A model generated the notes under the pieces. The model was not told the DNA's origin. It was given only the letters and a program-made list of their open reading frames with translations, and ran no database searches. Positions 1 through 55,364 of a DNA stretch of 64,000 nucleotides are shown here, piece by piece; within the stretch, counting starts at the first letter, position 1; each line of letters opens with the position of its first letter. Source of the DNA: a virus (lineage: Duplodnaviria > Caudoviricetes). The DNA lies in IMG/VR virus record IMGVR_UViG_2894625894_000003, positions 87,535 through 151,534 of that record, one strand, 5' to 3'. A program made the position numbers and the translations under genes.

Positions 1-1
1 T

Positions 2-1711
2 GATTACCGAGCCGTGGTCAACCTGTAAACCCAGTACGTAGAGCATGTTCTGAGCACCGAACTGCAGATCCCCGGTTCCATCGTGAAAGGGGCTGATACT
101 ACAGTCGGGCAGCCGGTGGTGCCGGATGGGCTTTCCAGCCAGCTCCCCCCAGATCAAGGGATCATTGGGGTAGCGAAGCACCGACTCCCAATAGCCCATC
201 TCCCCAGTCTCCCAGATGGTATCTTTACAGGGGTCATAAGGCTGATGGGGCTGGGTTAGCGTCCTGGCTGTATTATAAACCTGCCAGTAGGCGGGCACGG
301 CTGGGTTGCAGTCCGTCTGCTGGCTAAGCCGGTCAGCATTATCGGGTGCTGGCTTGAGCTCGTCAGTAGACGCTATCCGGCCCGGCAGGTGCAGCACACA
401 GGATTCCTCCCCCGTATCATACTCAAAGACCAATCCAACAGCAATTACCTCATCGCGGGGGTAGCCCGTCATCCGGCTGGCGGTAACCCCATTACGGTAG
501 GACCCTTCGGGTAAACTGGTTGTTGCCCACCCCAGGCGGATGCTATTGACGACCCGTTGGAGGTTAGGCTTACTGTACTCGGTCAGTCCCCAGGTAAAGA
601 GTTTGTTACCCGACTCGGTCAGTCCCTTGCTGGATTCGTAGTAGGCCCTTCGACTCAGCAGTTCGGCCAGCGGTAGGGTTGTCATCGTCTCATTACCCGT
701 TATGAGTAGCTGTCCCTGGTCGATAGGGAATGTTCCTACCAGCCGACTTTGCAGGGCACCATCGACGTTCTGGAGCATGACCAGGTTATAAAACGGAAAG
801 CTGGCCGTGTCCGCTGTTACCGTCAACCGGATTGCCTGCCCGGTATCGTAATCCGTTTCTTCCGTGGTTTGCCGGGTGGACAGGCTGACGGGGTAGGTCA
901 TTCCCTGGTAATCAGACAGGGCATTACCTTGTGCATCCGCATAGGCAGCCAGAAACCGGTAGGTCCCGGCCGGTAGGTTCCCCCCCGAGACAACCGCTGT
1001 CGGCTGCAGTCGAAGACGGCCCAGTAGCGGTTGCATCCGGATCCGGTTCAGATCCAGCTCGGCCAGCCCCGGAAACTGGAAGTAAGGATCCAGCACCAGG
1101 TTGGACAGAGGGTTAAGCGGCTGGCTGTAGGTAAAGTAAAGGTACCGATCGGGATTATACCCATCCACCCAGTAGAGACGCAGCCGGCAGTCGTCAAGCC
1201 GCACCTGGGCATCAATCGGATGATGCAAATTGAAGTTAAACCGAAAATGCTCTACCAGCACCGTCAGTCGGGCACCAGGCCCCACCGATACGGATTCCAG
1301 GGGATGCACCTGGGTAGATGGTGGGCATTCCACACAGGGGGCTACACTGCCCAGATTGTCGATCCCCCGCTCCAGGCGTACCCCCGTGAGCTCCACCAGT
1401 TTGCCTGGGGTCGTGTCAAAGCCGGACAGCGGTTGTTGGTTACCACTGACCAGGGGGGTTGCTTTGGGGGCTAAAAACAGCAAAAGCCGTTCCTGAGCTG
1501 GAACGGCAACGTAGCCAGCTACCCCAAAACCGGCAGGCAGGTGGTGAGCCAGCAGGGTCGATGGCTCATTGGTAATCAAAGGGGCCGTGGGTGTTCCCGA
1601 CAGGGCTGCATTGAGCAAGTAGGGAGAAGCCCCTTCGGGAAGTGCACCCGGGCTCACGTCCCGGTTCATGCCCGGAACGGCCTGGATGGAATGGGCTTGC
1701 GGAGTGGTCAT
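2..1711 (-). CDS. Tail muzzle / stabilization protein (P22 gp10-like, crAss-type), truncated by window edge; absent from ORF track
   Basis: ATG at 1711 overlaps upstream TGA (ATGA); translates MTTPQAHSIQAVPGMNRDVS...ITNEPS...RLYWVDGYNPDRYLYF...GYPRDEVIAVGLVFE, motifs I recognise from crAss-like muzzle proteins; position after ring protein. Confidence 0.8.
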   Translation of the reverse strand, partial: MTTPQAHSIQAVPGMNRDVSPGALPEGASPYLLNAALSGTPTAPLITNEPSTLLAHHLPAGFGVAGYVAVPAQERLLLFLAPKATPLVSGNQQPLSGFDTTPGKLVELTGVRLERGIDNLGSVAPCVECPPSTQVHPLESVSVGPGARLTVLVEHFRFNFNLHHPIDAQVRLDDCRLRLYWVDGYNPDRYLYFTYSQPLNPLSNLVLDPYFQFPGLAELDLNRIRMQPLLGRLRLQPTAVVSGGNLPAGTYRFLAAYADAQGNALSDYQGMTYPVSLSTRQTTEETDYDTGQAIRLTVTADTASFPFYNLVMLQNVDGALQSRLVGTFPIDQGQLLITGNETMTTLPLAELLSRRAYYESSKGLTESGNKLFTWGLTEYSKPNLQRVVNSIRLGWATTSLPEGSYRNGVTASRMTGYPRDEVIAVGLVFEYDTGEESCVLHLPGRIASTDELKPAPDNADRLSQQTDCNPAVPAYWQVYNTARTLTQPHQPYDPCKDTIWETGEMGYWESVLRYPNDPLIWGELAGKPIRHHRLPDCSISPFHDGTGDLQFGAQNMLYVLGLQVDHGSVI

Positions 1712-2409
1712 AGTTGATAGCGGGATAAAAGGCGGCCGTGCCAGCTTTCTTTCCAGGCCAGCAGTTGCTTGAAACTCGGCGTTTTGAGGTAGTTGGTGGC
1801 TACCGCTTCGGCTAGTTCATAGTCCCGTTTGGCCAGGTCCAGTCGTCGTTCCAGGTCATTGACCTCCGCATTGATGTAGAGGTCCTTGAGGGTCTGGTAG
1901 ATAAGAAACTTTTCCAGGTAATCGGTCAGTATCGGTTCAGCCGGCACCAGGATTGAGCCGTTATGGCGGGGAGTCCCCCACCCCTGGACCAGTACATAAC
2001 TATCGGTAAAATCGAACCGAAAGTAATGGCCGTCTTCAGTAAACTGGCGGTGGTAGTGATGGGAACGACAGGGCGATTGACGGTGGATCTGACTGTTTCG
2101 TTCGGCCTGGTGAGAGACCTGTCTGGCCCGGCTGGGGGGAATATACCGCAGCAGGGATCCGCTACTGGCCTCGGGATCTTCCAGCTCATGGATACTCCAG
2201 AAATCGACCATATCGGCGGGCTTGAGTACGCGGTGATTTTTTACGGCCAGCACCCACTCGGTCTCTTCTTTCAGAGACAGGCCCATTCGGCCCATCTCCT
2301 TTTTGAGCAGCGAGTAAAACTCTCCGGTATCCACCAGGTTAGCCGCTACGTAGCTACGCAGTCGGCTTTCAACCCCGCTTATCAGGGAGGCAGCGTCAGT
2401 AAATTGCAT
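1708..2409 (-). CDS. Tail tubular / ring protein (P22 gp4-like, crAss-type)
   Basis: 233 aa helical protein directly upstream of muzzle gene; synteny. Confidence 0.6.
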   Translation of the reverse strand: MQFTDAASLISGVESRLRSYVAANLVDTGEFYSLLKKEMGRMGLSLKEETEWVLAVKNHRVLKPADMVDFWSIHELEDPEASSGSLLRYIPPSRARQVSHQAERNSQIHRQSPCRSHHYHRQFTEDGHYFRFDFTDSYVLVQGWGTPRHNGSILVPAEPILTDYLEKFLIYQTLKDLYINAEVNDLERRLDLAKRDYELAEAVATNYLKTPSFKQLLAWKESWHGRLLSRYQL

Positions 2410-2411
2410 GG

Positions 2412-2933
2412 TTAAGGCTGGAGGCTGGAAAATTTATAGGTTCCTTCGAGATAGTCGTGCCCCTGATCGAGCCGGTCTTTGATGGAGCGGTTCAGCTCCC
2501 GAACGGCCTGAAAGGTAAACAGGTACTTTAACGGAAGGCGGGCTTTCTTGAGCCGGACCCATTTGATACAGTACGTGTAGCCGAAGGTGTGTAAATTAAG
2601 CTGGGGTACCTTCTGGCCCGTCTTACAAAAAGCAACCCGGTCGATAAAGGGCTGATTGCCCCGCACTTTACGTTTGTTAATGATCAGCAAGCCTAGTCGG
2701 TGGGGCAGCCAGAAACCACCCCGATCGGAAAGGACAGCCTCAGCAATGGATTTGTTGGAGGCTTCGATAACGGCCAGCCAGGTTTTGAAGGGAGGAGGGT
2801 TTTTATGACCGGCATAAATGGCCTGCCAGGTTTCTTTGTTGGAAAGCGAATGCCGACCGGCTAGTTTACTGGGCTTGGCCAGCTGTTTTTTCGAGTCGGT
2901 TGTCGTTTTGTAATTCGTCGGGAGGAATTCCAA
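2412..2933 (-). CDS. IHF/HU-like DNA-binding protein (crAss tail-module type)
   Basis: Basic; GFWLPHRLGLLIINKRK, LNLHTFGYTYCIKW, F-x-A-x-R motifs; between ring genes. Confidence 0.7.
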   Translation of the reverse strand: MEFLPTNYKTTTDSKKQLAKPSKLAGRHSLSNKETWQAIYAGHKNPPPFKTWLAVIEASNKSIAEAVLSDRGGFWLPHRLGLLIINKRKVRGNQPFIDRVAFCKTGQKVPQLNLHTFGYTYCIKWVRLKKARLPLKYLFTFQAVRELNRSIKDRLDQGHDYLEGTYKFSSLQP

Positions 2934-9680: not shown

Positions 9681-12600
9681 TTATGGATTCGTGGCCGTCA
9701 GATCCCGGTAAGAGATCCATTTTATTTTCAACTCCTCGTTGGTCAGCACCGTATTGTTGTTTCGTTTACGGAGCACGAACGTCGTGATGTCGGTATTGTC
9801 CCAGTTGGCCATACCCGTCATATCGATTTCTACCGTATGAAACTGACCATCATTGGCGACATTGAACTCTTTAAAAAATTCGCCCGAATTGACCAGTCCA
9901 GGTTTTACCCACCGCAACCACATGGCCCCGTCGGATGAAGTCAGCGCCATCCGTACATAGATCTTTTTGACTGTGCGGCCATTGATCCACCGTTCAGGCA
10001 GCGACACATTGTAGTCCCTTCCCGCGTTCTCCGTGTTAACCAAAGGTTTGACGGACAGGTACGAGGTAATGTTCTTTTCCAGCTGGTCTTCCGCTTTATG
10101 AAGAAAGAAACCCAGGCGGGATTTGCTGTTAAAGATGTATTCCGGTAAACCATTCCACTGAGCCTTCAGCCGGGTAAGACTGTTGACATAGGCCCGTATT
10201 TCGGCCTCGGTACCCTCCATGAAAGCCGCATCGAAGTCGTAGACACCATCCTTATCAATGCTCATCAAGGGAGCGGCTGCGAAATAGTTCGAGTTAAAGC
10301 TGGTCGGTTTATTGCTGGTAAAATTCTCCAGGTTAAACCCACCCACCGCAAACCGCGCATTATTACTAATGATGGCAATGTAGCGATCCAGCGTCCGGTG
10401 TTTCATCAGGATTACCGGTTCGGAGCCAAGTATAGGCGGGGCCGCGATGCCCCCCATGGCTTCGTTGTAGGAATACTCGATGAGTGGGGCGTTGGTAAAG
10501 GGCTGACCGGCAATGTAAAAAACCCGCTTGTAGTCAGTAGTCGTATACCAGCAGGGGGCCTCTTGCTGGCGGGGAGTAGGATATTTTGTTGAATAGGAAT
10601 CATTCCGGTCCATCTCCCAGCGGGCATGACGACGAACGACTTTCGAGTTACTTGGATCGAAATCAATCCAGCCCTTCATTTTCATCCGCCCGAAAATACC
10701 CGCCATGTCCCACTGGGCGGGCGTTGTTTCGTAGAACAACCTCGAACCACTGTTATGCAGGACAAGTGTATTACCGTACGTAGGATTCATCCCCGTACTA
10801 CCTCCTTGCACGGGATTGTAACCAATACTGCCGGCACCAGCGGGATGAAATTGTCCCGTTGATTGCCCTGCTTCGGTATAGTGCCCCTCACTATTTGGCC
10901 CCACATCGCCCCGTGGGTAGCCGTACATGGCATCCATGAGCTGGCGCCCCGCGTCGTCTTTTTGATTATCGGGCCAGATGGGGGAATTGACGGCACTAAA
11001 CAGACCACCATCGAACGACATGTAATCGATGACACTACCGAGCTTCGTGTTGACCGCAACCCGGGTATTGCCATTGATGATAAAGGCCCGAGGGAATTGG
11101 AGCGTGGCTGATGGCCGGTTTAGCTCGGGTAGATTAACATACGTACTGTTATCGGCATACAACCCGCCATAGCCCGTTGTGGGTACATTGGGAGTACCGG
11201 TTGTAATACTCGCCAATCCCTGAGCAATCCGTTTGGCAATCTCCAAATGTCCCGCATCATTCCAGTGAGCAGCTACACCCGAATGGGCATTCGGATTTGG
11301 TGGATCAAATTCCGTGGCCCGGTAGGCAGGGTAATCAACCCGGTCCGAGAAACTAATAAAGGTATAACCCCGCGAGGTCGCATACTCCTGAGCAGCGGCC
11401 GTTGACGTGGAATGGCCCGACCAGAAAGCCCCCCGAATCAGAATCCGACAATCACTGGTTTTAGGTATACGGCTGATTACCTGGTCGAGTCCAGCAAAGT
11501 ATTTTGCCTTGTCGAAGCTGGCTTCATAGATATTTTCCCCAATACTGATAACAATAGCCCCGAATGCCGGAGGGTTGTTACTAAACTGGTAATTGAGGTC
11601 CCCGGTGATTCGACTATTGTAGTCGTAATTACCATCCAGATAGGAATAGGTCTGTCCCTCGAAAGGAGCCCCGTGGGAACTACCGTAGACTTGTGCCGAG
11701 GGGTTAACCGTCCGAAGCATAGCCTGCAACCGGTGGACATAGTCCATCTCCAGGCTGCTGGCCGACATCCCGTTGCTACGCGGCCAGCCCGTAAACGAAC
11801 CCGCATAGGTAAACGAGTTACCAAAAACGTAAACGTAGTTGATACTGGGCAATCCCGAAATAATGGTCGTATTATCGGGCGGGGTGACTGTGGCTGAACC
11901 AGGCCGGCTGATTCGGATACTTTCGGACGCTAAGTAGGCCGTGGGGGTGATAGTAACGGTATTACTATTCTGAACAAAGCCTGCCACTACTGCCGTCAGG
12001 GACTTTATCTGCCCCCCTGTTCCGGCAAAGGAAAGGGCTTGAGGGGTGCCCCCGTTTACCGATACATTGGCCGTACCGGGTGTTGACGTACTCTGGTAGT
12101 TGAGCACCAGCGTATAACTCCCGGGACCAGGTACGTTGGGAATAGTATACGTTAAAGCTCCATCTTTGATTTTCCCCGATGGTGCATCTGGTTTATCCCA
12201 AATTGAACCAGGGCCTTCAGCTAAATAACTCGGAAAGGTCTGATCATAGGCCAGTACCGTTTCACTACCACATCCGGTTACTGACTGCCCAATGGTGATT
12301 GTCTTTGCCGGACAGTTGGCTTTGGTGGCTGTGGCGGTATAAAAATAGGTACCGTTGGTGGAGAGCTTGGCGGAAACCGTCTCGCCCGTAGATGATAAAA
12401 GACCGGCCCCCGTCCAGCTATAGCTAACCCCGTCACAGTTAGAACCTGCACAGGCAACCGAAAGGGAAAAGTTTGTATTACAGCCAACGCCAACTGGTAG
12501 AACCGTTGCCGTCAGCGTACCCATACAACTAGGTGTGGGGGTGACAGCATCCTTAATTACCCGTTCGGGCATGGCTTCACTGTTGGACGCCGTATATCGG

Positions 12601-39710: not shown

Positions 39711-39806
39711 TAAAATCTTTATAACTGGATAAAATCCCAATAACTGGATTTACCGGTTTTAATATCCGAATACTCCTGAATTTGAAACTGTATACACTAC
39801 CCTTAA

Positions 39807-40151: not shown

Positions 40152-40169
40152 AAATCATTAAGGTTACTG

Positions 40170-42553: not shown

Positions 42554-42604
42554 GCAGATTCAATAAATTTGCCAGCTTCAACCCCTAATTAAATAAGCTA
42601 TACC

Positions 42605-42997
42605 ATGGATGCAACGCATGCCTTTGTCCAGGATCTTCAGCAACTAGTCAGTACTAATCCGAATATATCCGTAACGGATGTTAATCGGCTGGCTGCTGTA
42701 CACAGCCTATCCGATCCCCTAGGACTCAGTGATTTATCGGCCCCGTTGGCATCCAAAATCGAGGATTTTCAGCTGTTGACAGTCAATGACTTAAAGGAAA
42801 AGGATAAAGTAAAGGCTTACATTGCTGATTATAATAAACTCCTGAAAAAGTGGTTGTTGCGTCGACATCGAGATGGTGACGGTAAGGTAATCGAAAAAGG
42901 AAACGGCCACGTAGTGATTCGGGTAGGTGAAAGCCCAGCGAGGTTTTACAACTATGAACCAGACAGTACATTGGTGGCCCTGTTCCAAAAAGGTTAA
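42605..42997 (+). CDS. Hypothetical early protein
   Basis: Co-oriented ORF converging on umuC. Confidence 0.55.
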   Translation: MDATHAFVQDLQQLVSTNPNISVTDVNRLAAVHSLSDPLGLSDLSAPLASKIEDFQLLTVNDLKEKDKVKAYIADYNKLLKKWLLRRHRDGDGKVIEKGNGHVVIRVGESPARFYNYEPDSTLVALFQKG

Positions 42998-44250: not shown

Positions 44251-44722
44251 ATATCGGGTATTTTGGAGGTTCGAAGAAGAAAAATGTAACCTTGCCAAAC
44301 AGCCAGTAATCCTCTCCCTCATGGACAATGATGGGTGCGTAATTGGGATTAGCCGGATGGAGAATCAGTAAGGATTCACTTACAATTTGTACCCGTTTAA
44401 CAGTAAAACCACCATTAACCCAGGCAACAATCATATCCCCATTTTCCGGTATGAGCCCTTTATCCACAATCAACCATCCACCCGGAACGATGTGTTCCTC
44501 AATCATGGAGTCGGACTCTACGTAAACAAAATAGGTTAAGTCCTTGTCCCTAATAACAAGCTCATTAAGGTCAATTACCTGTTCGATGTAAGAATCGGCC
44601 GGATTGGGGAAGCCAGCTGCCACATGCCCCATGAATAAGGGAATGGCAATCCTGGTGTCCGTATTCACCCGGTAGAATGAAGTGACTGGTATACAGTCCT
44701 TTATTGGTATTGAATGCCGCAT
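44231..44722 (-). CDS. umuD: UmuD-like S24 peptidase
   Basis: VAAGFPNPA autocleavage site, DSM (Ser), TVKR (Lys). Confidence 0.92.
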   Translation of the reverse strand: MRHSIPIKDCIPVTSFYRVNTDTRIAIPLFMGHVAAGFPNPADSYIEQVIDLNELVIRDKDLTYFVYVESDSMIEEHIVPGGWLIVDKGLIPENGDMIVAWVNGGFTVKRVQIVSESLLILHPANPNYAPIIVHEGEDYWLFGKVTFFFFEPPKYPIYGDWNR

Positions 44723-44779
44723 CTCGGTTTCTTTTTGGGCTTAACATACGAAATATATGTCAACTACAATACAAACAAA

Positions 44780-44813
44780 CCAAAAATATGTTTTAGTTTA
44801 AATATATTTTTGG
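44780..44813. promoter_or_regulatory. Inverted repeat upstream of umuD
   Basis: CCAAAAATAT-N14-ATATTTTTGG. Confidence 0.5.
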
Positions 44814-44832
44814 CCCCAAACCGATTTTTAGT

Positions 44833-45186
44833 ATGTTTCTACCCCTCAAAGGTGACCTTAAAACGTTTAGCTGCTGGGCCGTTTTGTTCTACGGTCCCGC
44901 TGGAAATGAAATCATTCTGTTACGGGATAAGCCAGACACAAGTAATAATATGTTCTTCTTTGTTCAGGAGAATAACTGTCTGGGCCGGCTGTCCATCCGG
45001 GGATTCAATGCCCTCTTTAAAGCTAATTTACCAACCGCTCCAGAATTAGTGAAGGACTCTACTTGGAAGATCGACATACTGTTCGGCCGAAACCGGAGTA
45101 CACTTACCCAACCGGTTCAAATCGAGCTGGAATGGTTCTTTGATGAAGATGGTAACCTAGTTAACTTCTTACCCGATATAGGATGA
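44833..45186 (+). CDS. Hypothetical protein
   Basis: ATGA-coupled to next gene. Confidence 0.55.
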   Translation: MFLPLKGDLKTFSCWAVLFYGPAGNEIILLRDKPDTSNNMFFFVQENNCLGRLSIRGFNALFKANLPTAPELVKDSTWKIDILFGRNRSTLTQPVQIELEWFFDEDGNLVNFLPDIG

Positions 45187-45503
45187 ACCAATCACTACAA
45201 CCTAACCCATTTGCTAACGGTATACCCGAGCTGGTAGAAGAGCCAGTTACGCTAATTGATCCAGCTGGGTTCGAAGTAGGAGTCATTCAGAATAACCTCC
45301 AGTTTGCTTTTGTCCGGGCTGAGATCCGGTCCTATGGATTAAAAGGGTACTCCGTTGTATTTCGTGGAGACTCCTACCCTATTGAACAGAATGGACGTGG
45401 TCTGTTTCCTAACGAGATGTTCGGTCTTTGGGGATGCCTACTCGATACATTAATCAAACCAGCCGGACCTATGCCGGATTTAACACCTTACCTTAAACGA
45501 TGA
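45183..45503 (+). CDS. Hypothetical protein
   Basis: ATGA-coupled both sides. Confidence 0.55.
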   Translation: MNQSLQPNPFANGIPELVEEPVTLIDPAGFEVGVIQNNLQFAFVRAEIRSYGLKGYSVVFRGDSYPIEQNGRGLFPNEMFGLWGCLLDTLIKPAGPMPDLTPYLKR

Positions 45504-45922
45504 GCACTTTCAGTATACCACACCAACCAGACATATACCTGGATGGTATAAAACTGGATAACACCAAAGAATTCGAAATGATATTCATCAAACCGGAATA
45601 CCCCTTTGGTGTAAATGCTGTTATCCACTATTCTGACCGGTTAAAAACCTTTCGGAATGGAGTCATAGATACCCTGCACAATTTGAGTGAGCTGCATTTC
45701 TGGTACAATTTCAGACCCGACCAGATAGAACGAATAGAAAATCAACAGATTACATACGGACCAGAAACTGCATTTGAATCAAATTTCCATTCTACAGGAA
45801 CTATTATGTACAATGGCTACATCTCGAAGATCGAGATGACATCAGCCAGTGGTTATTACTCGGGCAAGTGTATGGTTCGTACAGTCATAAATCAAGGATA
45901 CCATGGAGTTTCTGCTGGTTGA
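45500..45922 (+). CDS. Hypothetical protein
   Basis: Operon ORF. Confidence 0.55.
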   Translation: MSTFSIPHQPDIYLDGIKLDNTKEFEMIFIKPEYPFGVNAVIHYSDRLKTFRNGVIDTLHNLSELHFWYNFRPDQIERIENQQITYGPETAFESNFHSTGTIMYNGYISKIEMTSASGYYSGKCMVRTVINQGYHGVSAG

Positions 45923-46062
45923 AAATCGATTTATACCAGGAATCAACCGACGAGTGGTGATCCAAGTTGGGAACCAGGTACGAACCCGACACCACTGGTT
46001 CCGTCTGGAGCATTTTCTGGAAGTAAACAAAATCATTCACCAAAGACCATTGGACCACTCTT

Positions 46063-46266
46063 ATGACAACCGCACAACGTTATAAATTCTGGGGCAACGT
46101 GTTCCAGATTGGATTCCGCCTTGCCAAGCGAAACAAGTCCTTCCGGTGTATTTACGAACGAGATTCGGAAGAATACCGATGGTTTCGTGCGGGATACATT
46201 AGTTGTATCTGGATTCGAAGGCCCCTGACCAGTAGGTATATGGAGCAGTTACTACCGCTCATTTGA
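46063..46266 (+). CDS. Small basic hypothetical protein
   Basis: Precedes terminator. Confidence 0.45.
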   Translation: MTTAQRYKFWGNVFQIGFRLAKRNKSFRCIYERDSEEYRWFRAGYISCIWIRRPLTSRYMEQLLPLI

Positions 46267-46286
46267 TTCAACATACTTAAAAAGAC

Positions 46287-46322
46287 AAACCCCCGCCCGG
46301 AGCATCCAGGTGGGGGTTTTTT
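46287..46322 (+). terminator. Rho-independent terminator
   Basis: AAACCCCCGCC...GGTGGGGGTTTTTT. Confidence 0.75.
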
Positions 46323-46740
46323 ATTGCCATTTCGGAAGGTCCGGAATGGAGTTCACCACAATAACGCACTGTTAGCATGAAACTCGTCACCGTTCCATGG
46401 GCTCGTATGGGAATAACCTATTACGGCTTGTCCATTTTGAGCTGTTTTAAGGTCTTTTGGCCACTTAACCAGTTTCACCTGATTTCTTCCTGTTCAGTCA
46501 TCCTGGTAGGTGGCTACTGGCTGGTTTTTCTATACCGGCGAATCCGAATAAAACCAGCCTTTAAGTAAGGGGAGGACCGGGTATGTAACAATTATATACC
46601 TGATAAGACCCTGAAAAAACCTGTAGACCCGGCCCCCTTTTCCCGTCTCGACAGTAAAGTAACGGTTTTTTAGTGGATATAGGCTACTGGTAATACAAAA
46701 AATCCCCCTAAACTGATTAAACGGGCTTATTTCCAAATCC

Positions 46741-46758
46741 CTACCGTGTTTGTGGTAG
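46741..46758. promoter_or_regulatory. Candidate operator CTACC-N8-GGTAG
   Basis: CTACCGTGTTTGTGGTAG in a long non-coding gap. Confidence 0.5.
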
Positions 46759-47067
46759 TAAGCCGGTTTTTAGACGATGGGTAATCATTGAGGTCACCGC
46801 TATCCTACCTGTAAACGGACAGCAAACCCATAAAACCATTTCTGCCTTATGTGTACGATCAATGGAGTTATCGTGGTCCTAAGCACCGGAGAAGATGAAT
46901 ACCAAACCGATTGGACAACTATCAAATAACCTGTCTTTATCGACTTTTAAACTGGATTATCCAGTTTTAAGGTAATTTTTATGATTTTCCGGTTTGTTTA
47001 TTGTTTTTAATCAAATTTTTAACTTGTTTCGGGTGTTCAAAACCAAACCGCTATAATCTAAAGTCAA

Positions 47068-47733
47068 ATGAACACCACCGAGACGTTCAACCCATTAAAT
47101 CCAATGTCTTTTTCAAACATTATCGCAAAGGCTTCTCAGACAGTTAAGAAGTATATCAAAGTTCGGTGGATCTCGGCCACCACGGTTTGGGTTCACAACC
47201 GCCGTATTGATTTAACCCGGTTAACCTACTGTCCAAACTGGACAACTCGGGATTCAGCCGGTGAAGCCTTCAACTTCGTGGCTGGGCTGCGGGAAGAACA
47301 GGCTGAAAAGGTTACCGTACTGGATTCCCGGATCAATGAGATCGACAACCAGATTGCCACACTCACCCTACTCCGGGAAGAGTCAGCCCGCCAACGGGTT
47401 CAGGCTAAAGCCAAGGAGGATACGTTGATCAACGTACTGGATAAGATCAAGGTGGTTATGGAAGAAGTTGAGCCAAAGACCTGGGTGGGCAATTCGGTGA
47501 CCAATGAATACGTTGAGGTCCCCAATATCGACCTGGAGGATTATCTGGCGGATAATTCCAGCTTGTCAGTAGTGGACACAGTACTATTCCGAAATGTTAA
47601 TAACGGGAAGACTAAATCATTCCCAGCGGCCCTAAAGGACCGGTTTGTGATAGAAAATCTGGATTGGCAGCTGGTCAAAACCATGGTGGTAGAAATGCCG
47701 AACCTGCCAATGAAGGCCGTACTGGCCGCCTAA
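47068..47733 (+). CDS. Coiled-coil early protein
   Basis: 221 aa, own terminator. Confidence 0.6.
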   Translation: MNTTETFNPLNPMSFSNIIAKASQTVKKYIKVRWISATTVWVHNRRIDLTRLTYCPNWTTRDSAGEAFNFVAGLREEQAEKVTVLDSRINEIDNQIATLTLLREESARQRVQAKAKEDTLINVLDKIKVVMEEVEPKTWVGNSVTNEYVEVPNIDLEDYLADNSSLSVVDTVLFRNVNNGKTKSFPAALKDRFVIENLDWQLVKTMVVEMPNLPMKAVLAA

Positions 47734-47786
47734 AATCTCACGGGCATGTTACGCCCAAGAGGGTTATTTAGAGGAACTTAAGGAGG

Positions 47787-47822
47787 AAACCCGTACTGGC
47801 CATGATCTGGTACGGGTTTTTT
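47787..47822 (+). terminator. Rho-independent terminator
   Basis: AAACCCGTAC...GTACGGGTTTTTT. Confidence 0.75.
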
Positions 47823-47853
47823 GTAAACTATCCATATTGAAACGGCTATAGTC

Positions 47854-48369
47854 ATGGAAACAACTGAACCAAATAAGGCCTATTTATTTTTAGATTTCGA
47901 CGGCGTCTTGAATCACGAATTGTTCCATAATGAGTGGTACGAGAAACTAGCAAATTGGCCAATTGATCAACCAAAGCCGGTAAAACCAGAGTTCTGTCCC
48001 AGGGCTATTCAGAGTCTCAACGACTTATGTGAACAGTTCACACACTTATCTATTGTGATTAGTTCGGTTTGGCGGGCTCATGGGGCGGATAGATGTTTAG
48101 AAATTCTGACATCCTCAGGATTCAGTTACCCCGAACGGGTAATTGACCGTACACCCCTCAGCCGGCACCGAGTGCGAGGTGTTGAAGTGTTGGATTGGCT
48201 CAAGCAAAACACCGAATACGGAACCAAACCAGTGGACTACGTTATCCTGGATGATGATTCAGATTTCCTGATCTGGCAGTCCCATCGGTTTATTCATGTG
48301 GACCCCTATTCGGGTCTCAATCACAACCATGTATACAAAATAGGTCGAATACTAAACCGGTTGATTTAA
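47854..48369 (+). CDS. HAD-superfamily phosphatase (Swiss-Army-knife RNA-repair type)
   Basis: FLDFDGVLN, ISSVWR, RG.EV..WL, YVILDD. Confidence 0.85.
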   Translation: METTEPNKAYLFLDFDGVLNHELFHNEWYEKLANWPIDQPKPVKPEFCPRAIQSLNDLCEQFTHLSIVISSVWRAHGADRCLEILTSSGFSYPERVIDRTPLSRHRVRGVEVLDWLKQNTEYGTKPVDYVILDDDSDFLIWQSHRFIHVDPYSGLNHNHVYKIGRILNRLI

Positions 48370-48704
48370 TGGAAAATCAAGTAAAGTTGAACTTTCCAGT
48401 TCTCACTCAGGACCTTCTGAATAGGATCCTGGCCGATAATGGGATGAACTCGGTTGTTGAGGATCATTTCCGGGAAGTTGTTCGGGATGAATCAGGCAAA
48501 CAGATTTTGACTGGTCCTAAAGTGGATCAGGTTGAAGCCTGTTTAACTCAATTCTTCAACGAATGCCCGGACCTAAATACAAACGATGTACTGGAGGACA
48601 TATCCACCGGGGAGGAATCGGAAATAGATGAGGCATACGGTCATATCAAGGCCTACAAACCTCTCAAAGAGGCCCTTGTTGCCTGGTTTGACGAACTAAT
48701 ATGA
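48369..48704 (+). CDS. Acidic hypothetical protein
   Basis: TAATG-coupled. Confidence 0.55.
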   Translation: MENQVKLNFPVLTQDLLNRILADNGMNSVVEDHFREVVRDESGKQILTGPKVDQVEACLTQFFNECPDLNTNDVLEDISTGEESEIDEAYGHIKAYKPLKEALVAWFDELI

Positions 48705-49144
48705 AATCTCCAATAAACCATTATTCACCAACTGTACGGAGCTGGCTCTACTGGAATCGGATTTCTAGGTTACTGGTCGAGATAGACGAACTAGACCGCC
48801 AGAAAGCTGAACTCCTTACGATTGGCCCTGCTGTCAAGCAGAACAATGCCCGCTGGGTTACGGCTCTTCAATTAGTATCCACTAACCTCGTGGATCTACC
48901 AGGAAATCATTCATTTCAACAGGCATGGAACGGAATAAGAGGCCACGTATCGATAGGCGAATACACTCCCTACAAGACCTATCAACAATCATTAGACCGG
49001 ATCAACCGGTTGAAGTCGAAAAAGTCGTCCAAAATCGAGCGATACAGACGATTCCTCAAGTCAATCCAAAATCCGATCTCCGTAGTCCCAACGCCGACAT
49101 CTGCCGGGTCGACCTCGGGCGAACGTACTGGAAACGGTGGTTAG
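48701..49144 (+). CDS. Hypothetical protein
   Basis: ATGA-coupled. Confidence 0.5.
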   Translation: MKSPINHYSPTVRSWLYWNRISRLLVEIDELDRQKAELLTIGPAVKQNNARWVTALQLVSTNLVDLPGNHSFQQAWNGIRGHVSIGEYTPYKTYQQSLDRINRLKSKKSSKIERYRRFLKSIQNPISVVPTPTSAGSTSGERTGNGG

Positions 49145-49285
49145 AGTCGAAAGGATTTATCTACCTCTATACATTAACATCCACTCGATTCTGTGGCCGG
49201 CCCTACGACGTATATGAGGCACCGTCAGGAGTCCGGGTATTTGAAGTGATGACCAATTTGTACTGGGATCGAACCACTTTATGCG

Positions 49286-49597
49286 ATGTTAAAGCTGCTT
49301 GATACACTGGAGGAATTTCTGATTCATTGTCAGGAGAATCAAATCAATCCTCGGTATGCCCTATACTGTTTGAATCAGGGTATAGAGGATCCAGAAAACA
49401 TGAAACGGATAGACCAGAAACGTTATCTGGGTGGCCACATGCTGGGTTATATCCTGTGGAACTCAGCCCGCGTTTCAAACTGGCAGTGCACCTTCCCGGA
49501 AAAGGATCGGTATTTACATCAGGTAAATACTATGCCCGAACAATACAACAAATGGCTTTATGACTATGTGGGAAACAACAAACGAGAAACCATCTGA
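49286..49597 (+). CDS. Hypothetical protein
   Basis: INPRY..Y, GG.M.GYI.W phage-type motif. Confidence 0.55.
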   Translation: MLKLLDTLEEFLIHCQENQINPRYALYCLNQGIEDPENMKRIDQKRYLGGHMLGYILWNSARVSNWQCTFPEKDRYLHQVNTMPEQYNKWLYDYVGNNKRETI

Positions 49598-49988
49598 ACG
49601 GATACAATTTGCCCTTGATGCCTTAATTAAGGCCGAACAACCGGGTAGTTGTGTCACCCCTCGTATGGGTACCTGGTTTTACACTCCAGATGATTCGAAT
49701 CATTGCTTTGCCTGTCTAGGTGGAATGGCCGCCCTAGAAAAAACTGGTTTAACTGTTCAGGAACATGTTCGGTTTAGGGAACAGTTTTACAATGAGCTGC
49801 ATGTATATGAAGATACTTTGGATGATGCCCGAGATGGAAACCTAGAGGAAATGTTCGCTAAAATGGGATTATCCCGAAAAATTGGGGTAAAATTCGACCG
49901 CGAATTGGTCCAATATTGGGAGGATCCAGAGCAATTTAAGACCGATCTTCGGACACTCATTTCAGATCTCCAGTCTGCTGGTTATTAA
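49560..49988 (+). CDS. Hypothetical protein
   Basis: M.TW...CFACLGG motif. Confidence 0.55.
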   Translation: MTMWETTNEKPSERIQFALDALIKAEQPGSCVTPRMGTWFYTPDDSNHCFACLGGMAALEKTGLTVQEHVRFREQFYNELHVYEDTLDDARDGNLEEMFAKMGLSRKIGVKFDRELVQYWEDPEQFKTDLRTLISDLQSAGY

Positions 49989-49990
49989 TT

Positions 49991-50218
49991 ATGTATAAAC
50001 TAACACCGGCAGATTTCGAGTTACTTCACGAGCACGTAATAACGGTAACCCTGAACTGGATACTAATCCAGGATAAGGCCCTACCGTTTCCTACTGCCGA
50101 TTACTTTAGCCATCTAATGGGGTCAAATTGGAGGAATCGAAACCTGGACATCATTGCCCGGGAGTTTTTCAAAAAATATATCCCTGGATTTGATCAATCA
50201 ATCCTCATAAAGTCGTGA
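49991..50218 (+). CDS. Hypothetical protein
   Basis: Operon ORF. Confidence 0.45.
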   Translation: MYKLTPADFELLHEHVITVTLNWILIQDKALPFPTADYFSHLMGSNWRNRNLDIIAREFFKKYIPGFDQSILIKS

Positions 50219-50408
50219 TTGTAACCCATATTAAACGGGATGGGGCCTTCTTATGTAAGATGGATAAATCACCCCTTTTTAATCTTGTTGCTCGATTCCA
50301 CCGGGCTATTACCTGGACAACCGCACTACACCGGTCCTCACTGAAGGATTGCTGTCCATCATGCGTAGGAATACTGACTGATCGGATGGAACGAGTAAAA
50401 CAAAATCA

Positions 50409-50702
50409 ATGAACATTCATCCAATTCCGGGCTGGAATACCATGCCCACCAGCCAGCAGGAAATGACCTTTGTGGAAGAGGTCAACAAAGCCTTGGCCCC
50501 TATGGAATGGGCCATGTCAACCTGGATGAAATCCGGGAATGAAAACCTGACCTACTGTGCCTACATGATTCTGCAGGCCCTGGAAGAGTCCGGTTACTGT
50601 CTAACCAAATTACCCCCATCCCATGAAACTGTTCCTATTACCACTCCTGCTGATTCTGTTCAGTCTGCCCACATTTGCCCAAACCAAAATTCAGTGGGGT
50701 AA
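50409..50702 (+). CDS. Hypothetical protein
   Basis: Operon ORF. Confidence 0.45.
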   Translation: MNIHPIPGWNTMPTSQQEMTFVEEVNKALAPMEWAMSTWMKSGNENLTYCAYMILQALEESGYCLTKLPPSHETVPITTPADSVQSAHICPNQNSVG

Positions 50703-51138
50703 ACAATCGGATACGTTGTTTTTGCCTGGCCGAGGTGATTACCACACACCAGCTCCCCTAAACTGGCCAACTACCCCTCTGGGTATGGCGCCTGACACAG
50801 CCAGGGAACTCGGGGTTGATTACAACGAGCACGAGCCACTACTGATCTATTCCGACAAGGATGTTAGCTGGGATCCAAAACTATTCCAAAATGAGAAAAA
50901 GAGGCAGGCTACTATCAATTTAAAGGGCTCAATTATTACCCGAAGAGCTGCTGAACGGGCGAGCGAAGAGGCCGAACTACTATTTCGACTGGTAATGGAC
51001 CAGTTAATGGACCGATTACCTGTACTTGAGCGGGATACACTGGAAACATTGGTCCAGGATCTGTATAACAAAACCAAACAACAGGCCTTACTGATCAAGA
51101 TACAATACAATCTTATCCGGCTGTACGAATCCAAATGA
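50623..51138 (+). CDS. Exported protein
   Basis: Signal peptide MKLFLLPLLLILFSLPTFA-Q. Confidence 0.6.
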   Translation: MKLFLLPLLLILFSLPTFAQTKIQWGKQSDTLFLPGRGDYHTPAPLNWPTTPLGMAPDTARELGVDYNEHEPLLIYSDKDVSWDPKLFQNEKKRQATINLKGSIITRRAAERASEEAELLFRLVMDQLMDRLPVLERDTLETLVQDLYNKTKQQALLIKIQYNLIRLYESK

Positions 51139-51139
51139 A

Positions 51140-51385
51140 ATGAAAGCACAATTCATCCAAGAGGTAACAGTAATGGACCCTGATTCAAATCTACCGGTCG
51201 AAATAACAATCTATAAAGAACAGGCCGGGGGTATGTTTGGGGTGGACAGCTCCTACCTAACTGATACTGATGACCCAGTTCATTCTCCGTTTGGTAATGG
51301 CATCCTGGACATGGACCGACTTGCTCAAAATAATGCTCGACTTCCAGGGAATGGAGGAAGAATCCAAATTGGGGACAATGGGTAA
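51140..51385 (+). CDS. Hypothetical protein
   Basis: GGMFGVDSSYL motif. Confidence 0.55.
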   Translation: MKAQFIQEVTVMDPDSNLPVEITIYKEQAGGMFGVDSSYLTDTDDPVHSPFGNGILDMDRLAQNNARLPGNGGRIQIGDNG

Positions 51386-51559
51386 GAAAATACGCGAAGT
51401 TCCAGTGGAATCTGATCCATCCCGGGTTCCAGTGGATGGTATAGAGCTGGGAAATTTCCAGTTCACCCTCATGGAGGATGGATCCATAAAAGCTATCAAA
51501 ACAAAAGGGCGTGAACCCGTATCGATTCGGCCCCATTCGGACAACTCCTTCACAATAAA

Positions 51560-51820
51560 ATGAAAATATTCCCCGGACAGAAAGTTATTCAGTCACATCC
51601 AGACTTCCCCGAAACAGTGGTAGCCTGGGCTAATAAGTTTATCTACAACCTCCACGTTTGTGCTCAGGGGGATGGCTTCGGTCCTATTGTTGCCAGGAGT
51701 TATCTGGCATCCATGGACAAATTCCCTGATTCAGTCCTGCTGAAGGAAGCCCAAAAGGGCATGGTGACTAACCCGGAGGCCTACGTAGACCTGGTTGCTA
51801 AATCTGTACATGACAAATGA
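51560..51820 (+). CDS. Hypothetical protein
   Basis: ATGA-coupled. Confidence 0.5.
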   Translation: MKIFPGQKVIQSHPDFPETVVAWANKFIYNLHVCAQGDGFGPIVARSYLASMDKFPDSVLLKEAQKGMVTNPEAYVDLVAKSVHDK

Positions 51821-52167
51821 AAATCGAAAGAACATTTCGGGCTACCATCCATGTAGGATTGCAGGAGGGATACGATCAGTACAGGATCCATGATCTGGAA
51901 GAAGTGTACCAAATCTGCCAGGAATTTGTCAAAGAAACCCCCAGTTGTGTATCGGTAACACCTACCCAGTATGTTTATGTGGATGGGCAGGAACCAGGAG
52001 CCATTGTGGAATTCATTCAGTATCCTCGGTTCCCAACCGACGAGAATATGATACTCCACCGGGCACTAACGCTGGCCCATCTGTTAATGGAACGATTCAA
52101 ACAACAAAAGGTCTGTGTCATCACACCCACATTTACCTATATGATCACCCCGGATTATGAGTTCTAA
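51817..52167 (+). CDS. Conserved-looking phage protein
   Basis: VGL.EGY, VTPT.YVY..G.EPG, YPRFP motifs. Confidence 0.6.
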   Translation: MKIERTFRATIHVGLQEGYDQYRIHDLEEVYQICQEFVKETPSCVSVTPTQYVYVDGQEPGAIVEFIQYPRFPTDENMILHRALTLAHLLMERFKQQKVCVITPTFTYMITPDYEF

Positions 52168-52546
52168 CCCAGTAAAGTTCAAAATCGAAAAAACTGACAG
52201 GCCCTATGTTCTGAAGATTGACGGGGACTGGTGTAAGATTGTCGAGGAAAACGGTATCGTTCAGATTCAAAATGGGTCGGTAGGTTTGGGATTCTCAGCC
52301 CATCCCAATATCGACAAAACCGGATCAGTGGAGTGCATGAAAGCCCTGGGCCGGTGGGGTAAACATGATCGGATCAAGCTGGCTCATGGGTTTTACTTCA
52401 ACAAAACCCGGGTTGTCATTACTCATAAGCTGGACTTGCTGGCTTATATGATCCAAACGGGACAGTTCGATCCGGTTGTATTTACAGCTGATTCCGAAGG
52501 TTGTGTTTCCATCCCCTATCCAGCGAAACTTCCCCGGTATATTTAG
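52157..52546 (+). CDS. Hypothetical protein
   Basis: HPNID.TGSV..MK..G.WG motif. Confidence 0.55.
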   Translation: MSSNPVKFKIEKTDRPYVLKIDGDWCKIVEENGIVQIQNGSVGLGFSAHPNIDKTGSVECMKALGRWGKHDRIKLAHGFYFNKTRVVITHKLDLLAYMIQTGQFDPVVFTADSEGCVSIPYPAKLPRYI

Positions 52547-52814
52547 TATGATAAGTATAAGTATGTACCAGCAAACCAGGAGTGGGCACGAAGTTCAGAT
52601 CAAAAGCCAAGAAACCTGGAGAAATGGGGACTATGTAGGCATGTACAGACTCAAAAAGCCACTTGATCCCAATCGATCCTGGGTAAGCACCCGCTGGACT
52701 AAAGACGGTATTTATCTGGGGAGTAACAATCCGGAACTGAATCTTAAGCTGCCGCTTCTACAGTAAAATTAAGGATGCTGTGTCTTAAATCTGTTTATAT
52801 CAAATAGATAGACC

Positions 52815-53069
52815 ATGCCAAATTATCAGAGTATTGAACACCGACTATCAATTGACTTCCCTGGATACCACCTGGCCCACTTGGATGATGATCAATTACC
52901 ACCACAATCTCCTAATCCCTTAAATCCAGAGCAGCCTTTTACCCGGATTTTAGATATTGGAGAAGATGTGGTTCGAATCAAAGTCTATGAGGAAACCAAT
53001 AAGGGGCAGATGGCCAAACAGGTTTCCTGGTGTGTGGTAACTGAATACCCACCTAAACCAACTATATAA
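52815..53069 (+). CDS. Hypothetical protein
   Basis: Co-oriented ORF. Confidence 0.45.
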   Translation: MPNYQSIEHRLSIDFPGYHLAHLDDDQLPPQSPNPLNPEQPFTRILDIGEDVVRIKVYEETNKGQMAKQVSWCVVTEYPPKPTI

Positions 53070-53145
53070 TGTTTGAATGTTTTTGTAAAGGCGAACTAAC
53101 TTCGACATATGGAAGTTTGGCCCAATGATTAACTTGTAAACATTT

Positions 53146-53475
53146 ATGCTCAAGTCTTCCCCTATATACGATCGATTATATCCTCAATTTGAAGCAGGCA
53201 CCGGTGATTTAGAAGAATTACACGAATCTGCTCGTCTGGTTACAAACAAAGTTTTGGACACATTAGGGATTAAACCAGAAGAACGTCAAATGGAAGTGAC
53301 GTTACCTAATCCCGGTGGGGAGAAACCTGTTGATCTTCTAATTACGGAAAACGGAATGGGAGTATGTTCCAGTACAACGGATCCAGAATTTTATGTTTGG
53401 TCAGAGATTGATCCATCATTAATTCTGGAACTAATTCGGGTATTGGAAACAGGGTATATAACTCACAATAACTAA
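53146..53475 (+). CDS. Hypothetical protein
   Basis: Co-oriented ORF. Confidence 0.5.
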   Translation: MLKSSPIYDRLYPQFEAGTGDLEELHESARLVTNKVLDTLGIKPEERQMEVTLPNPGGEKPVDLLITENGMGVCSSTTDPEFYVWSEIDPSLILELIRVLETGYITHNN

Positions 53476-53480
53476 TATCA

Positions 53481-53774
53481 ATGGATGTAATCTGTATCAA
53501 TGGGAAGTTTGAACCAGAACAGGTTCGAATGTACCGTGAACATGGAGTAGTTACCCCTGAACAGGACAAGCTCTACACAATTCGGAAACACAAACGGCAC
53601 AGCAATGGCCAGGTAGGCCTCTGGTTAGAGGAGCTCGTGAATCCACCGGTCCCACAAGGGGTCATGGGTATTGAGGCAATGATGGAGCCGAGTTGGAACA
53701 TCAACCGGTTCGCTACGTTAGCCGGTCAACCGATTAAGGTTAAGGAACTCGAATTGGTTGATACACTGGAATAA
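53481..53774 (+). CDS. Conserved-looking phage protein
   Basis: V.CIN, YTIR, GL.LEE..NP, EP.W...RF motifs. Confidence 0.6.
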   Translation: MDVICINGKFEPEQVRMYREHGVVTPEQDKLYTIRKHKRHSNGQVGLWLEELVNPPVPQGVMGIEAMMEPSWNINRFATLAGQPIKVKELELVDTLE

Positions 53775-53822: not shown

Positions 53823-55157
53823 TTAGCCGGCTTTCCGGACCTCGTTACTTTTTCGGAGTGTTTCCGTCTGACGTAATGTAACCTCCTCCTCGGGCTCGAT
53901 CCTTCTCAGGTTGGTCCCTGGGATGATCAGGGCCTGGGAAGCGTTGTCGAGAGTTTGTTGTGGGAACTGCCGTAGGTATATCCGGGTCGTCTCTTCTGAT
54001 TCATGGCCCAGTAATTCTGAAATAACCGTAGTAGAGGCCCCCGAGTTTTTCATAGCCATGGCAAAACTATGCCGGGCAACGTACAGAGTCAGATACTCCC
54101 CTATTTCGGCTTCCTTGGCCACCAGTCTGAGTCCTTGATTCCACTGCCGGCAAATCCGTTCAATCCTCCAATTAATCTGCTGCGGTAGTACATGAACCTG
54201 GGAATGGAGAATGGGCCACACGTATTTATTTCGGGGAGGTCGACGACCCTGATAAAACTCCCAGATCTTAATGGCTGGTTCCAGCATCTTGATGTCGAAG
54301 TAGTGGCCGGTTTTCTTCCGGGTATACCGGAGCCTCACTTCCCCGCTCTCTAGGTAATGCATATTCTCGGTTGTCAGGTTGGCTACGTCCACCAGGTTGA
54401 TTCCCCGGCAGTAGTAACTGAACAGGAAAAACTGCTGGGCATGAAACCGGTCCGACATAGCCGGTAGTTCGATCCGGGCAATTTTCAAAACATCCTCCTG
54501 GGTGATTGATTTCTTGGGTGTCTCAATTTTCCTATATTTTGTCAGAGGGAATTCCTCGAACGGATTATAGGACTTTTTCACGACACCCTCCGTCCGGGCA
54601 TAGCCCACCAGAACACGCAGAGTTCGAAAGTACAATGAAATACTGGTCTTCTTTAAACCCTTACCCTGCATGGCACTCTCCCACTTTAAGAGAAAGCTCG
54701 GACCCAGTTCGACAAACTCAAATTCCTTCTTACCCATCATCGACACCAGGTGATTCCTTGTGTCCTTAAACGTAGCGGCATACCCTACCCGACCGGCTTG
54801 TTTTAACCGATCAATCGTCTCGTCGAAAAACTCAATGACCCCCTTCTCGGATTTCGGCTTGTTAATCCCCGCCTGCAGGACCTCTTCCATCGAGAAGGTT
54901 TTGGTCTCCTCGACGGCATTGAGCATTTCCTTCCGGGCATTGGTCTCCTTCTCGTCGCACATCTTGAGCAACTGACCATACAACGGATGGGACTTCTTGG
55001 GACGGCTGGTTTTATCATCCCACTGGCTGTCGGCACACGAAAATCCCAGGCCGGCATACGACTGTTTTTTGCCTTTGGTGACCCGGAGCATAACCGGATG
55101 TTCCCCGTTCTTGAGTGTCTTGGAACGGAACAAAACAACTTTTACTGACCCTACCAT
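53823..55157 (-). CDS. int: Prophage tyrosine integrase (Bacteroidota type: arm-binding, SAM-like, catalytic)
   Basis: G.HPVMLRVT arm domain; FLFSYY.RGIN..D, YVARHSFA, LGH....TT.IY. Confidence 0.92.
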   Translation of the reverse strand: MVGSVKVVLFRSKTLKNGEHPVMLRVTKGKKQSYAGLGFSCADSQWDDKTSRPKKSHPLYGQLLKMCDEKETNARKEMLNAVEETKTFSMEEVLQAGINKPKSEKGVIEFFDETIDRLKQAGRVGYAATFKDTRNHLVSMMGKKEFEFVELGPSFLLKWESAMQGKGLKKTSISLYFRTLRVLVGYARTEGVVKKSYNPFEEFPLTKYRKIETPKKSITQEDVLKIARIELPAMSDRFHAQQFFLFSYYCRGINLVDVANLTTENMHYLESGEVRLRYTRKKTGHYFDIKMLEPAIKIWEFYQGRRPPRNKYVWPILHSQVHVLPQQINWRIERICRQWNQGLRLVAKEAEIGEYLTLYVARHSFAMAMKNSGASTTVISELLGHESEETTRIYLRQFPQQTLDNASQALIIPGTNLRRIEPEEEVTLRQTETLRKSNEVRKAG

Positions 55158-55170
55158 AGCGTAGCTTGAC

Positions 55171-55272
55171 TGGTTTTTACTACTTTTGGTTTATAAATGG
55201 TTTATACCAGCTACCCGGTAATCGGTAGAAACCGAACGCCAGGGTACATAAACCGGCTATAAGCTATTGATT
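55171..55272. promoter_or_regulatory. att-arm region: tandem TGGTTTATA repeats, CTACC-N8-GGTAG box, IHF-like site, possible tRNA promoter
   Basis: TGGTTTATA at 55188 and 55198, inverted CATAAACC near 55247; CTACC box 55211-55228; TAAGCTATTGATT 55260-55272; TACTTTTG 55181. Confidence 0.6.
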
Positions 55273-55290
55273 TACAGGGCCAACGCGAAA

Positions 55291-55364
55291 GCATTCGTAG
55301 CTCAATTGGATAGAGCACCTGACTACGGATCAGGAGGTTTGGGGTTCGAATCCCTACGAGTGCA
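55291..55364 (+). tRNA. tRNA-Arg (anticodon ACG)
   Basis: GCATTCG/CGAGTGC acceptor stem, D-arm, CCTGA-CTACGGA-TCAGG anticodon arm, GGTTCGAATCC T-arm; CCA not encoded. Confidence 0.97.

Follow-up and report, generated by a model that had tools for sequence, protein, structure and literature searches.

A prophage of the extended crAss-like assemblage integrated at a tRNA-Arg gene in a Bacteroidota chromosome

The subject of this study is a stretch of viral DNA of 64,000 nucleotides (nt; IMG/VR record IMGVR_UViG_2894625894_000003, positions 87,535 to 151,534), in the following called the window. It corresponds to positions 504156-568155 of the 573,714-bp contig C33 in genome G000 (7.53 Mb in 62 contigs, 47.4% GC). 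We are highly confident that the 55 kb in the window are the right-hand part of one intact-looking prophage of 144.4 kb, which belongs to the extended crAss-like assemblage and represents a lineage next to the epsilon group. As read from the assembly, the prophage spans C33:415067-559439 on one contig and resides in a soil-type Bacteroidota chromosome. A preliminary description of the window had proposed a temperate crAss-like phage integrated at tRNA-Arg, and this is supported by attachment (att) repeats at both ends, the modules found to the left of the window, empty sites in related genomes and a second lysogen in Spirosoma oryzae. The head-tail genes, the integrase and the tRNA of that description are real, but its coordinates were too short, since they take in only 38% of the prophage, whose true left end lies 89 kb beyond the window.

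Boundaries of the prophage and its chromosomal locus

The tRNA abutting the integrase side of the element was identified as tRNA-Arg(ACG) by both ARAGORN and Rfam (Table 1). Its second copy was located by searching the tRNA-Arg against the genomes of the genus, which provided the matching att repeat that the preliminary description had placed at the far end of the element. The two repeats are direct, 82 nt long, 100% identical and 144,455 bp apart, both inside the same 574-kb contig, and each comprises the entire tRNA-Arg(ACG) gene plus 6 nt upstream and 1 nt downstream. Between the prophage ends we found neither a third tRNA or att copy nor another integrase; apart from the att copy the prophage lacks tRNA genes, and in an Rfam scan the tRNA was the sole RNA found. 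Previous candidates for the left end were given up once the 82-nt repeat had been found: a search for att repeats up to 70 kb left of the window gave only matches of 11-13 nt at chance level, among them one at the GC boundary near C33:467864. A 16-nt inverted match to the tRNA-Arg 3' end (about 0.01 expected by chance) is located at C33:498793-498808, within a late gene for a protein of 677 amino acids (aa), and is probably fortuitous.

The coding density is 94% over 184 open reading frames (ORFs), and no large gene is obviously broken; those encoding proteins of 3594, 1993, 1683, 1580 and 1518 aa are intact. The late genes form an 80-kb block on the minus strand with a GC content of 53-56%, which reaches about 35 kb left of the window, and the early and replication genes have 42-48% GC. 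The S. oryzae prophage shows this two-GC pattern as well. In the left 53 kb we found genes for a PolA polymerase, SF2 and DnaB-like helicases, a primase, RIIA/RIIB, DUF932, a LAGLIDADG endonuclease, a DUF4942 methyltransferase and a PAPS-reductase-like protein. In an IMG/VR contig of a metagenomic relative (3300025597_000009, portal 53% identical), the replication module ends with PolA, followed after at most about 4 kb by an integrase and then by the early and late genes, which is the arrangement expected after excision.

On the host side, tblastx showed that the left tRNA copy has 5-8 kb of upstream DNA syntenic with the region upstream of tRNA-Arg in 12 of 12 genomes of the same genus, and the downstream side differs in each of them. 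A DNA-level search for the empty site with the left flank had been unsuccessful, the species of the genus having diverged too far, and was replaced by this approach. One full copy of tRNA-Arg(ACG) is present in most same-genus genomes searched. The phage portal was absent from all 60 relatives searched, 36 of them from the same genus, and a search of genome contigs with a single portal sequence gave no match. This corresponds to the empty site in related strains to which the preliminary description had pointed.

The tRNA-Arg(ACG) gene is an integration hot spot in the genus, partial 3'-half copies being the usual scars of other integrated elements. Full copies paired with such 3'-half copies (anticodon loop onward) at distances of 36-65 kb are present in G021, G027, G032 and G034. 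The unrelated element that had been reported right of the tRNA was confirmed. It has a second integrase, which is 24% identical to the phage integrase in a partial alignment (E 1e-6). In two of the 12 genomes (G028 and G025), tRNA-Arg is directly followed by an element homologous to window positions 58-63 kb; this restriction-modification (R-M)/primase/integrase element is thus a separate resident of the hot spot. Its far end was not reached before the contig end (window 55367-64000 plus L006).

Kinship with crAss-like phages and a sister prophage

Portal and large terminase (TerL) were searched by tblastn against 50,697 phage records, and all 132 portal matches as well as all 27 TerL matches are crAss-like or crAss-related phages. 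The best matches are the Leptolyngbya phage Lbo-JY46 (portal 35%, TerL 31% identical), Epsilon crAssE-Sib and the Cellulophaga phages phi4:1/phi17:2 (Lightbulbvirus), followed by the ICTV Crassvirales at about 22%. The crAss-type TerL, portal and major capsid protein (MCP) of the preliminary description could be verified, and so could a ring-protein homologue (Table 1). The MCP is 24% identical to that of crAssE-Sib (E 6e-29). The module order, i.e. TerL, portal, a protein of about 400 aa, MCP, one of about 300 aa, ring protein and a structural protein of about 640 aa, is common to the prophage, crAssE-Sib, phi4:1 and Lbo-JY46.

The replication and virion RNA polymerase (vRNAP) modules had been expected left of the window, and it is there that we found the PolA, helicase and primase genes and a late gene for a protein of 3594 aa. 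Residues ~1700-1765 of this protein, with the sequence GGDFDVD near residue 1750, match RNA polymerase (RNAP) genes of 82 phage records, nearly all of which are named crAss-like and which include crAss001 gp50. We predict a giant virion protein with the crAss RNAP DxDxD motif, whose C-terminal parts resemble DprA (residues 2750-2935) and a Dda-type SF1 helicase (residues 3040-3566). A DprA-like piece is present in or beside the vRNAP gene in some crAss and N4-like phages. The prophage thereby displays the features of the extended crAss-like assemblage (Yutin 2018/2021): the MCP, the portal and TerL kin, the head-tail gene order, the giant protein with the RNAP motif and the muzzle.

For the phylogenetic placement, we calculated a portal tree of 31 sequences (IQ-TREE, LG+G4, SH-aLRT) that was rooted at the midpoint only and contained two epsilon representatives and, from the four ratified Crassvirales families (Intestiviridae, Steigviridae, Crevaviridae and Suoliviridae), Steigviridae and Suoliviridae. 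Together with the S. oryzae prophage and four metagenomic proteins, the prophage makes up a six-member clade (100%), nested in a 14-member clade (96%) that also holds Lbo-JY46 and contigs of 114-133 kb. The latter clade is sister to the pair of crAssE-Sib and phi4:1 (100% support), with the prophage outside that pair, and Steigviridae, Suoliviridae and Fpv1 are separated from the prophage lineage plus epsilon by the main split (SH-aLRT 100). In this portal tree the prophage groups beside epsilon/Lightbulbvirus, and not with the ratified Crassvirales families Steigviridae and Suoliviridae sampled here; the nearest named relatives are not assigned to the order Crassvirales in the NCBI taxonomy. 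Within the "extended crAss-like assemblage", phages phi4:1/phi17:2 have been assigned to the Epsilon group (Yutin 2021, PMC7886860). By this token the prophage is crAss-like in that broad sense, and only in that sense, as a lineage beside the epsilon group.

Compared with known phages, Lbo-JY46 is the closest one sequenced, with the same structural gene order and a place in the same 14-row portal clade, but it has a cyanobacterial host and a tRNA array. crAssE-Sib and phi4:1/phi17:2 have genomes of 145-151 kb and encode homologues of the portal, MCP, ring protein and TerL with identities of 24-31%; phi4:1, however, has a large tRNA array, whereas the prophage has the att tRNA only. The arrays of phi4:1 and Lbo-JY46 comprise about 20 tRNAs or more. 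PhiCrAss001 and the ICTV Crassvirales (Steigviridae, Suoliviridae) share a homologous portal (7qog), the capsid and muzzle families and the catalytic motif of the vRNAP, but their portals are only 21-23% identical, their genomes measure about 100 kb, and the portal tree puts them on the other side of its main split. Such phages have been described as incapable of lysogeny (PMC8375218). Carjivirus communis, the prototypical crAssphage, has been reported as a phage-plasmid (PMC10983915). It is a crAss-type phage with a repL gene and non-lytic persistence (PMC10983915), but it has no integrase and shows no integration, in contrast to the chromosomal prophage with its integrase and att repeats.

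A sister prophage with a portal 52% identical was found in S. oryzae (GCA_003002825.1, PVTE01000009.1; also IMGVR_UViG_2728369482_000003). The S. oryzae contig C9 is collinear with the prophage over at least 121 kb, running from the integrase through the late genes to the replication module at the contig end, and PolA (60% identical) is encoded on contig C19. The two integrases are orthologous (37% identical over the full length), and the motifs ARHSFA, LGH and RIYL of the catalytic region are visible in their alignment. A perfect 49-bp repeat at C9:108031-108079, just upstream of the integrase, and at C19:14881-14929, in the 3' part of tRNA-Arg(UCU), delimits a prophage of at least 135.7 kb, the left flank of which is ordinary chromosome. 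In both prophages, the 3' end of the tRNA points toward the PolA side and the integrase is at the far end. They differ in that the S. oryzae prophage lies on two contigs and uses tRNA-Arg(UCU) with a 49-bp 3'-tRNA repeat, as opposed to tRNA-Arg(ACG) and a whole-gene repeat here. This collinear prophage with a tRNA att repeat of its own bears out the lysogenic lineage postulated in the preliminary description. The genes flanking the S. oryzae prophage are 63-89% identical in protein to genes of G000, which suggests that the host genome is Spirosoma-like.

No Phage_integrase match was obtained in nine IMG/VR relatives with portals 34-40% identical (two of them CheckV-complete, one of these with terminal repeats), and homologues of the integrase are widespread in mobile elements of the Cytophagales. 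Since the integrase family is common in such other elements and deeper relatives have no Phage_integrase, the simplest reading would be that one sub-clade of otherwise virulent phages captured an integrase. Of the integrase homologues examined, the closest occupy a siphovirus-type prophage and a defence island, which are unrelated elements, and are no sign of additional crAss-like lysogens.

Mode of integration and alternative explanations

Both the full-length tyrosine integrase and the arm-like repeats between it and the tRNA, as noted in the preliminary description, are present (Table 1). The integrase gene is 133 bp away from the att repeat. The motif GTTTATAA has four copies in 147 kb, three of which are located within about 100 bp of the att repeats in one orientation. 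Two of these lie at the left end, 32 and 70 bp inside attL; at the right end, one copy and the variant GTTTATAC are situated between integrase and attR, oriented as at attL. Presence of GTTTATAA at both ends in the same orientation is what the P and P' arms belonging to a single attP should show, and we predict that these clusters are arm-type sites. The palindrome CTACC-N8-GGTAG occurs four times in the prophage region (window 9053, 39678, 46741 and 55211) versus 17 times in the whole 7.5-Mb genome; one copy is in the P arm beside the integrase and another in a 1.1-kb stretch (45922-47068) devoid of a convincing ORF.

According to our proposal, the free phage genome would carry attP beside the integrase gene, built on the host tRNA-Arg(ACG) gene in its entirety, with GTTTATA(A/C) arm sites to either side. 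The integrase would have recombined attP with the chromosomal tRNA-Arg gene, giving one whole tRNA at each end. Integration would thereby have divided the plus-strand early/replication block, so that 17.6 kb of it adjoin the integrase and 44 kb the left tRNA, with the 80-kb late block remaining central. We infer that the integrase, and not RecA, made the junctions, and that the prophage is still able to excise and to form crAss-type virions.

Some findings weigh against this proposal. A whole tRNA in attP, instead of its 3' part, is unusual and would permit RecA-mediated insertion. Pfam and PHROGs searches with 30 early-region proteins, in which the small ORFs were partly covered, gave no match to CI, Cro, an anti-repressor or Xis/excisionase. 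The assembly contains no attP or attB junction contig, i.e. there is no sign of spontaneous excision. Furthermore, the full replication apparatus together with RIIA/RIIB is typical of virulent phages, and the RepL-like gene leaves room for an episomal phase. As regards a phage-plasmid, however, there is only this weak RepL match; we saw no gene for partition, and the element is chromosomal.

The best-surviving alternative, which we nevertheless regard as unlikely, is an integrated prophage that is defective or domesticated, neither excises nor forms particles, and is kept for its cargo (umuDC, anti-defence genes, the extra tRNA). The absence of a repressor or excisionase among the early genes searched and of excision junctions in the assembly would agree with such a state, as would a low-GC 4.4-kb plus-strand island that interrupts the late operon. 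Against it stand the high coding density, the intactness of the giant ORFs, integrase, TerL, portal and MCP, the perfect att repeats and the arm sites kept at both ends.

Insertion by homologous recombination between a phage-borne tRNA-Arg and the host gene, with the integrase uninvolved, appears very improbable to us. A whole-tRNA repeat with 82 nt of perfect identity is enough for RecA. Against this stand the closeness of the integrase to the repeat, the arm-type motifs on both sides of the core, and the sister prophage, whose integrase is orthologous and whose core is of the classical kind, 49 bp from the 3' part of a tRNA. Slighter still is the chance of an assembly artefact, in which an episomal phage or phage-plasmid with a host-identical tRNA-Arg was threaded into the chromosome at the 82-nt repeat. 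Many reads or k-mers fail to resolve a repeat of this length, there is a RepL-like gene, and the prototypical crAssphage is a reported phage-plasmid (PMC10983915); but both junctions are within the one 574-kb contig, the assembly holds no alternative junction contigs for the host-phage joins, integrase and arm sites are exactly where they are expected, and the independent S. oryzae assembly joins the sister phage to the chromosome with a classical tRNA repeat at both ends. Least probable of all is a tandem of at least two elements (a crAss-like phage and an unrelated replication island), to which the sharp GC difference between late block and remainder and the other elements at the tRNA-Arg hot spot might point, but which is at odds with the lack of an internal tRNA/att copy or second integrase, with the same two-GC pattern and gene order in S. 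oryzae, and with the joining of the replication module to the integrase side in 3300025597_000009.

Gene complement and biological meaning

The features on which the integrated crAss-like prophage reading is based, and further genes, are compiled in Table 1. As to functions assigned in the preliminary description, the nuclease at the operon head is recovered as an exonuclease, and the divergent early region as a plus-strand block of small genes. We could not substantiate the labels "IHF-like" and "Zn-finger", for the small ORFs had no match in Pfam or among PDB sequences, nor the label "scaffold". The muzzle exists, but it is the 1683-aa gene extending leftward from window position 1711 and not the 1580-aa ORF; the left part of this protein matches Pfam crAss_MUZ with 34 bits (cut-off 27) and phrog_37948 with E 1e-66. 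Left of the window, the late block includes genes for 1518, 3594, 1993 and 890 aa in addition to the 1683-aa gene that crosses the left edge. The 642-aa virion protein has counterparts of 642-662 aa, in the corresponding place, in the S. oryzae prophage, Lbo-JY46, phi4:1 and crAssE-Sib. Compared with PDB sequences, neither the MCP nor the proteins of 1993 and 642 aa nor the presumed IHF-like ORFs gave a match.

Table 1. Features of the prophage and its right-hand neighbour (window positions unless a contig is given)
Feature	Position	Strand	Evidence or remark
attL, twin of attR	C33:414985-415066	same orientation as attR	100% identity over 82 nt
3594-aa late protein	C33:474055-484839 (L005:1056-11840)	-	fusion: vRNAP motif, DprA-like and Dda-type helicase parts
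Muzzle-type tail protein, N-terminal 570 of 1683 aa	1-1711, on to C33:500815 (left part L001:16660-20000)	-	crAss_MUZ, phrog_37948
1580-aa tail-region protein, intact ORF	9681-14423	-	no Pfam match
744-aa fibre or decoration-like protein	14466-16700	-	Pfam PKD, He_PIG, fn3 (PKD/Ig and FN3 domains); tail-protein PHROGs
642-aa conserved virion protein	18761-20689	-	phrog_32037 E 2e-23
Ring (adaptor) protein homologue	20745-21443	-	phrog_29507; 31% identical, E 1e-27, to annotated crAssE-Sib ring protein
crAss-type MCP	22407-24104	-	Pfam Crass_capsid E 1e-14, 54 bits (cut-off 27); phrog_11589
461-aa protein in scaffold position	24110-25495	-	no family match; 376-430-aa proteins at same position in relatives
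Portal	25535-28300	-	phrog_6547 E 8e-94; matches crAss001 gp20 (PDB 7qog) E 4e-19
Tad2-like anti-Thoeris protein, between TerL and portal	28388-28699	-	Pfam Tad2-like E 3e-23
TerL	30879-33026	-	phrog_6681 E 2e-38
Exonuclease, first gene of late strand block	34972-35922	-	phrog_298 E 1e-15
Early region of small genes, few on opposite strand	36194-53774	+	ORF map; most without family
RepL-like protein	37074-37592	-	Pfam RepL 27 bits (cut-off 20.3), weak
umuD-umuC-like pair (S24 peptidase without helix-turn-helix; Y-family polymerase)	42994-44722	-	Pfam Peptidase_S24, IMS, IMS_C, DUF4113
HAD phosphatase, early region	47854-48369		
Tyrosine integrase, heterobivalent, type of Bacteroidota mobile genetic elements	53823-55157	-	Pfam Arm-DNA-bind_5, Phage_int_SAM_5 and Phage_integrase, all above cut-off
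P arm of attachment site	55158-55284	+	GTTTATAA at 55189, GTTTATAC at 55200, CTACC-N8-GGTAG at 55211
attR, 82-nt repeat with whole tRNA-Arg(ACG) gene (55291-55365)	55285-55366	+	tRNA by ARAGORN and Rfam
Separate integrative element, outside phage	55367-64000		EcoRV-type R-M, Mrr, RimK, primase, AAA_25 helicase, own integrase

The island mentioned above (C33:493647-498004, plus strand; L001:9492-13849) consists of 4.4 kb with seven small genes and 39.5% GC within the 55%-GC minus-strand late block, and looks like a moron or defence insert. In relatives (L030, L056, L057), Tad2-like and Acb2/Tad1-hairpin genes are present upstream of the portal, in one case with a TIR/SEFIR gene. The umuD-umuC-like pair, antisense within the early region, is possibly an SOS-linked cargo for lysogenic conversion. 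It is also worth recording that RIIA-/RIIB-like genes and a LAGLIDADG homing endonuclease reside in the replication module of a temperate phage (L004:11297-15009 and L004:16445-17293).

Among human-associated viruses, crAss-like phages rank with the most abundant. To our knowledge, those in culture neither lysogenise nor clear their hosts, and their mode of persistence is an open question. Integration is not unheard of, but the published hints are fragmentary. An epsilon study describes, in the passages concerned, two incomplete prophage-like epsilon sequences in Parabacteroides, and reports there neither an integrase gene, although such genes were searched for, nor delimited att sites (PMC11054128). 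Besides, crAss-like prophages have been predicted by software in pig-gut data (PMC12454387). What is added here is an apparently complete example, delimited to the base, from a non-gut Bacteroidota genome with a sister lysogen, for which the two att sites, the arm sites, unoccupied sites in related genomes and a relative in the excised-form arrangement are available.

One branch of a phage group supposed not to integrate does integrate, and the crAss virion chassis, including the giant protein with the virion RNAP motif, can go together with integrative lysogeny of the classical kind. Integrase gain maps to one sub-clade, the deeper relatives being without it. Whether this whole crAss-like sub-lineage is genuinely temperate in Cytophagales of soil and freshwater, Spirosoma among them, with an integrase captured from local mobile elements and att sites at tRNA-Arg genes, and whether the present prophage is inducible and yields crAss-type virions, we judge to be about evenly balanced. 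If true, it would provide a cultivable and genetically tractable lysogenic model for crAss-like biology.

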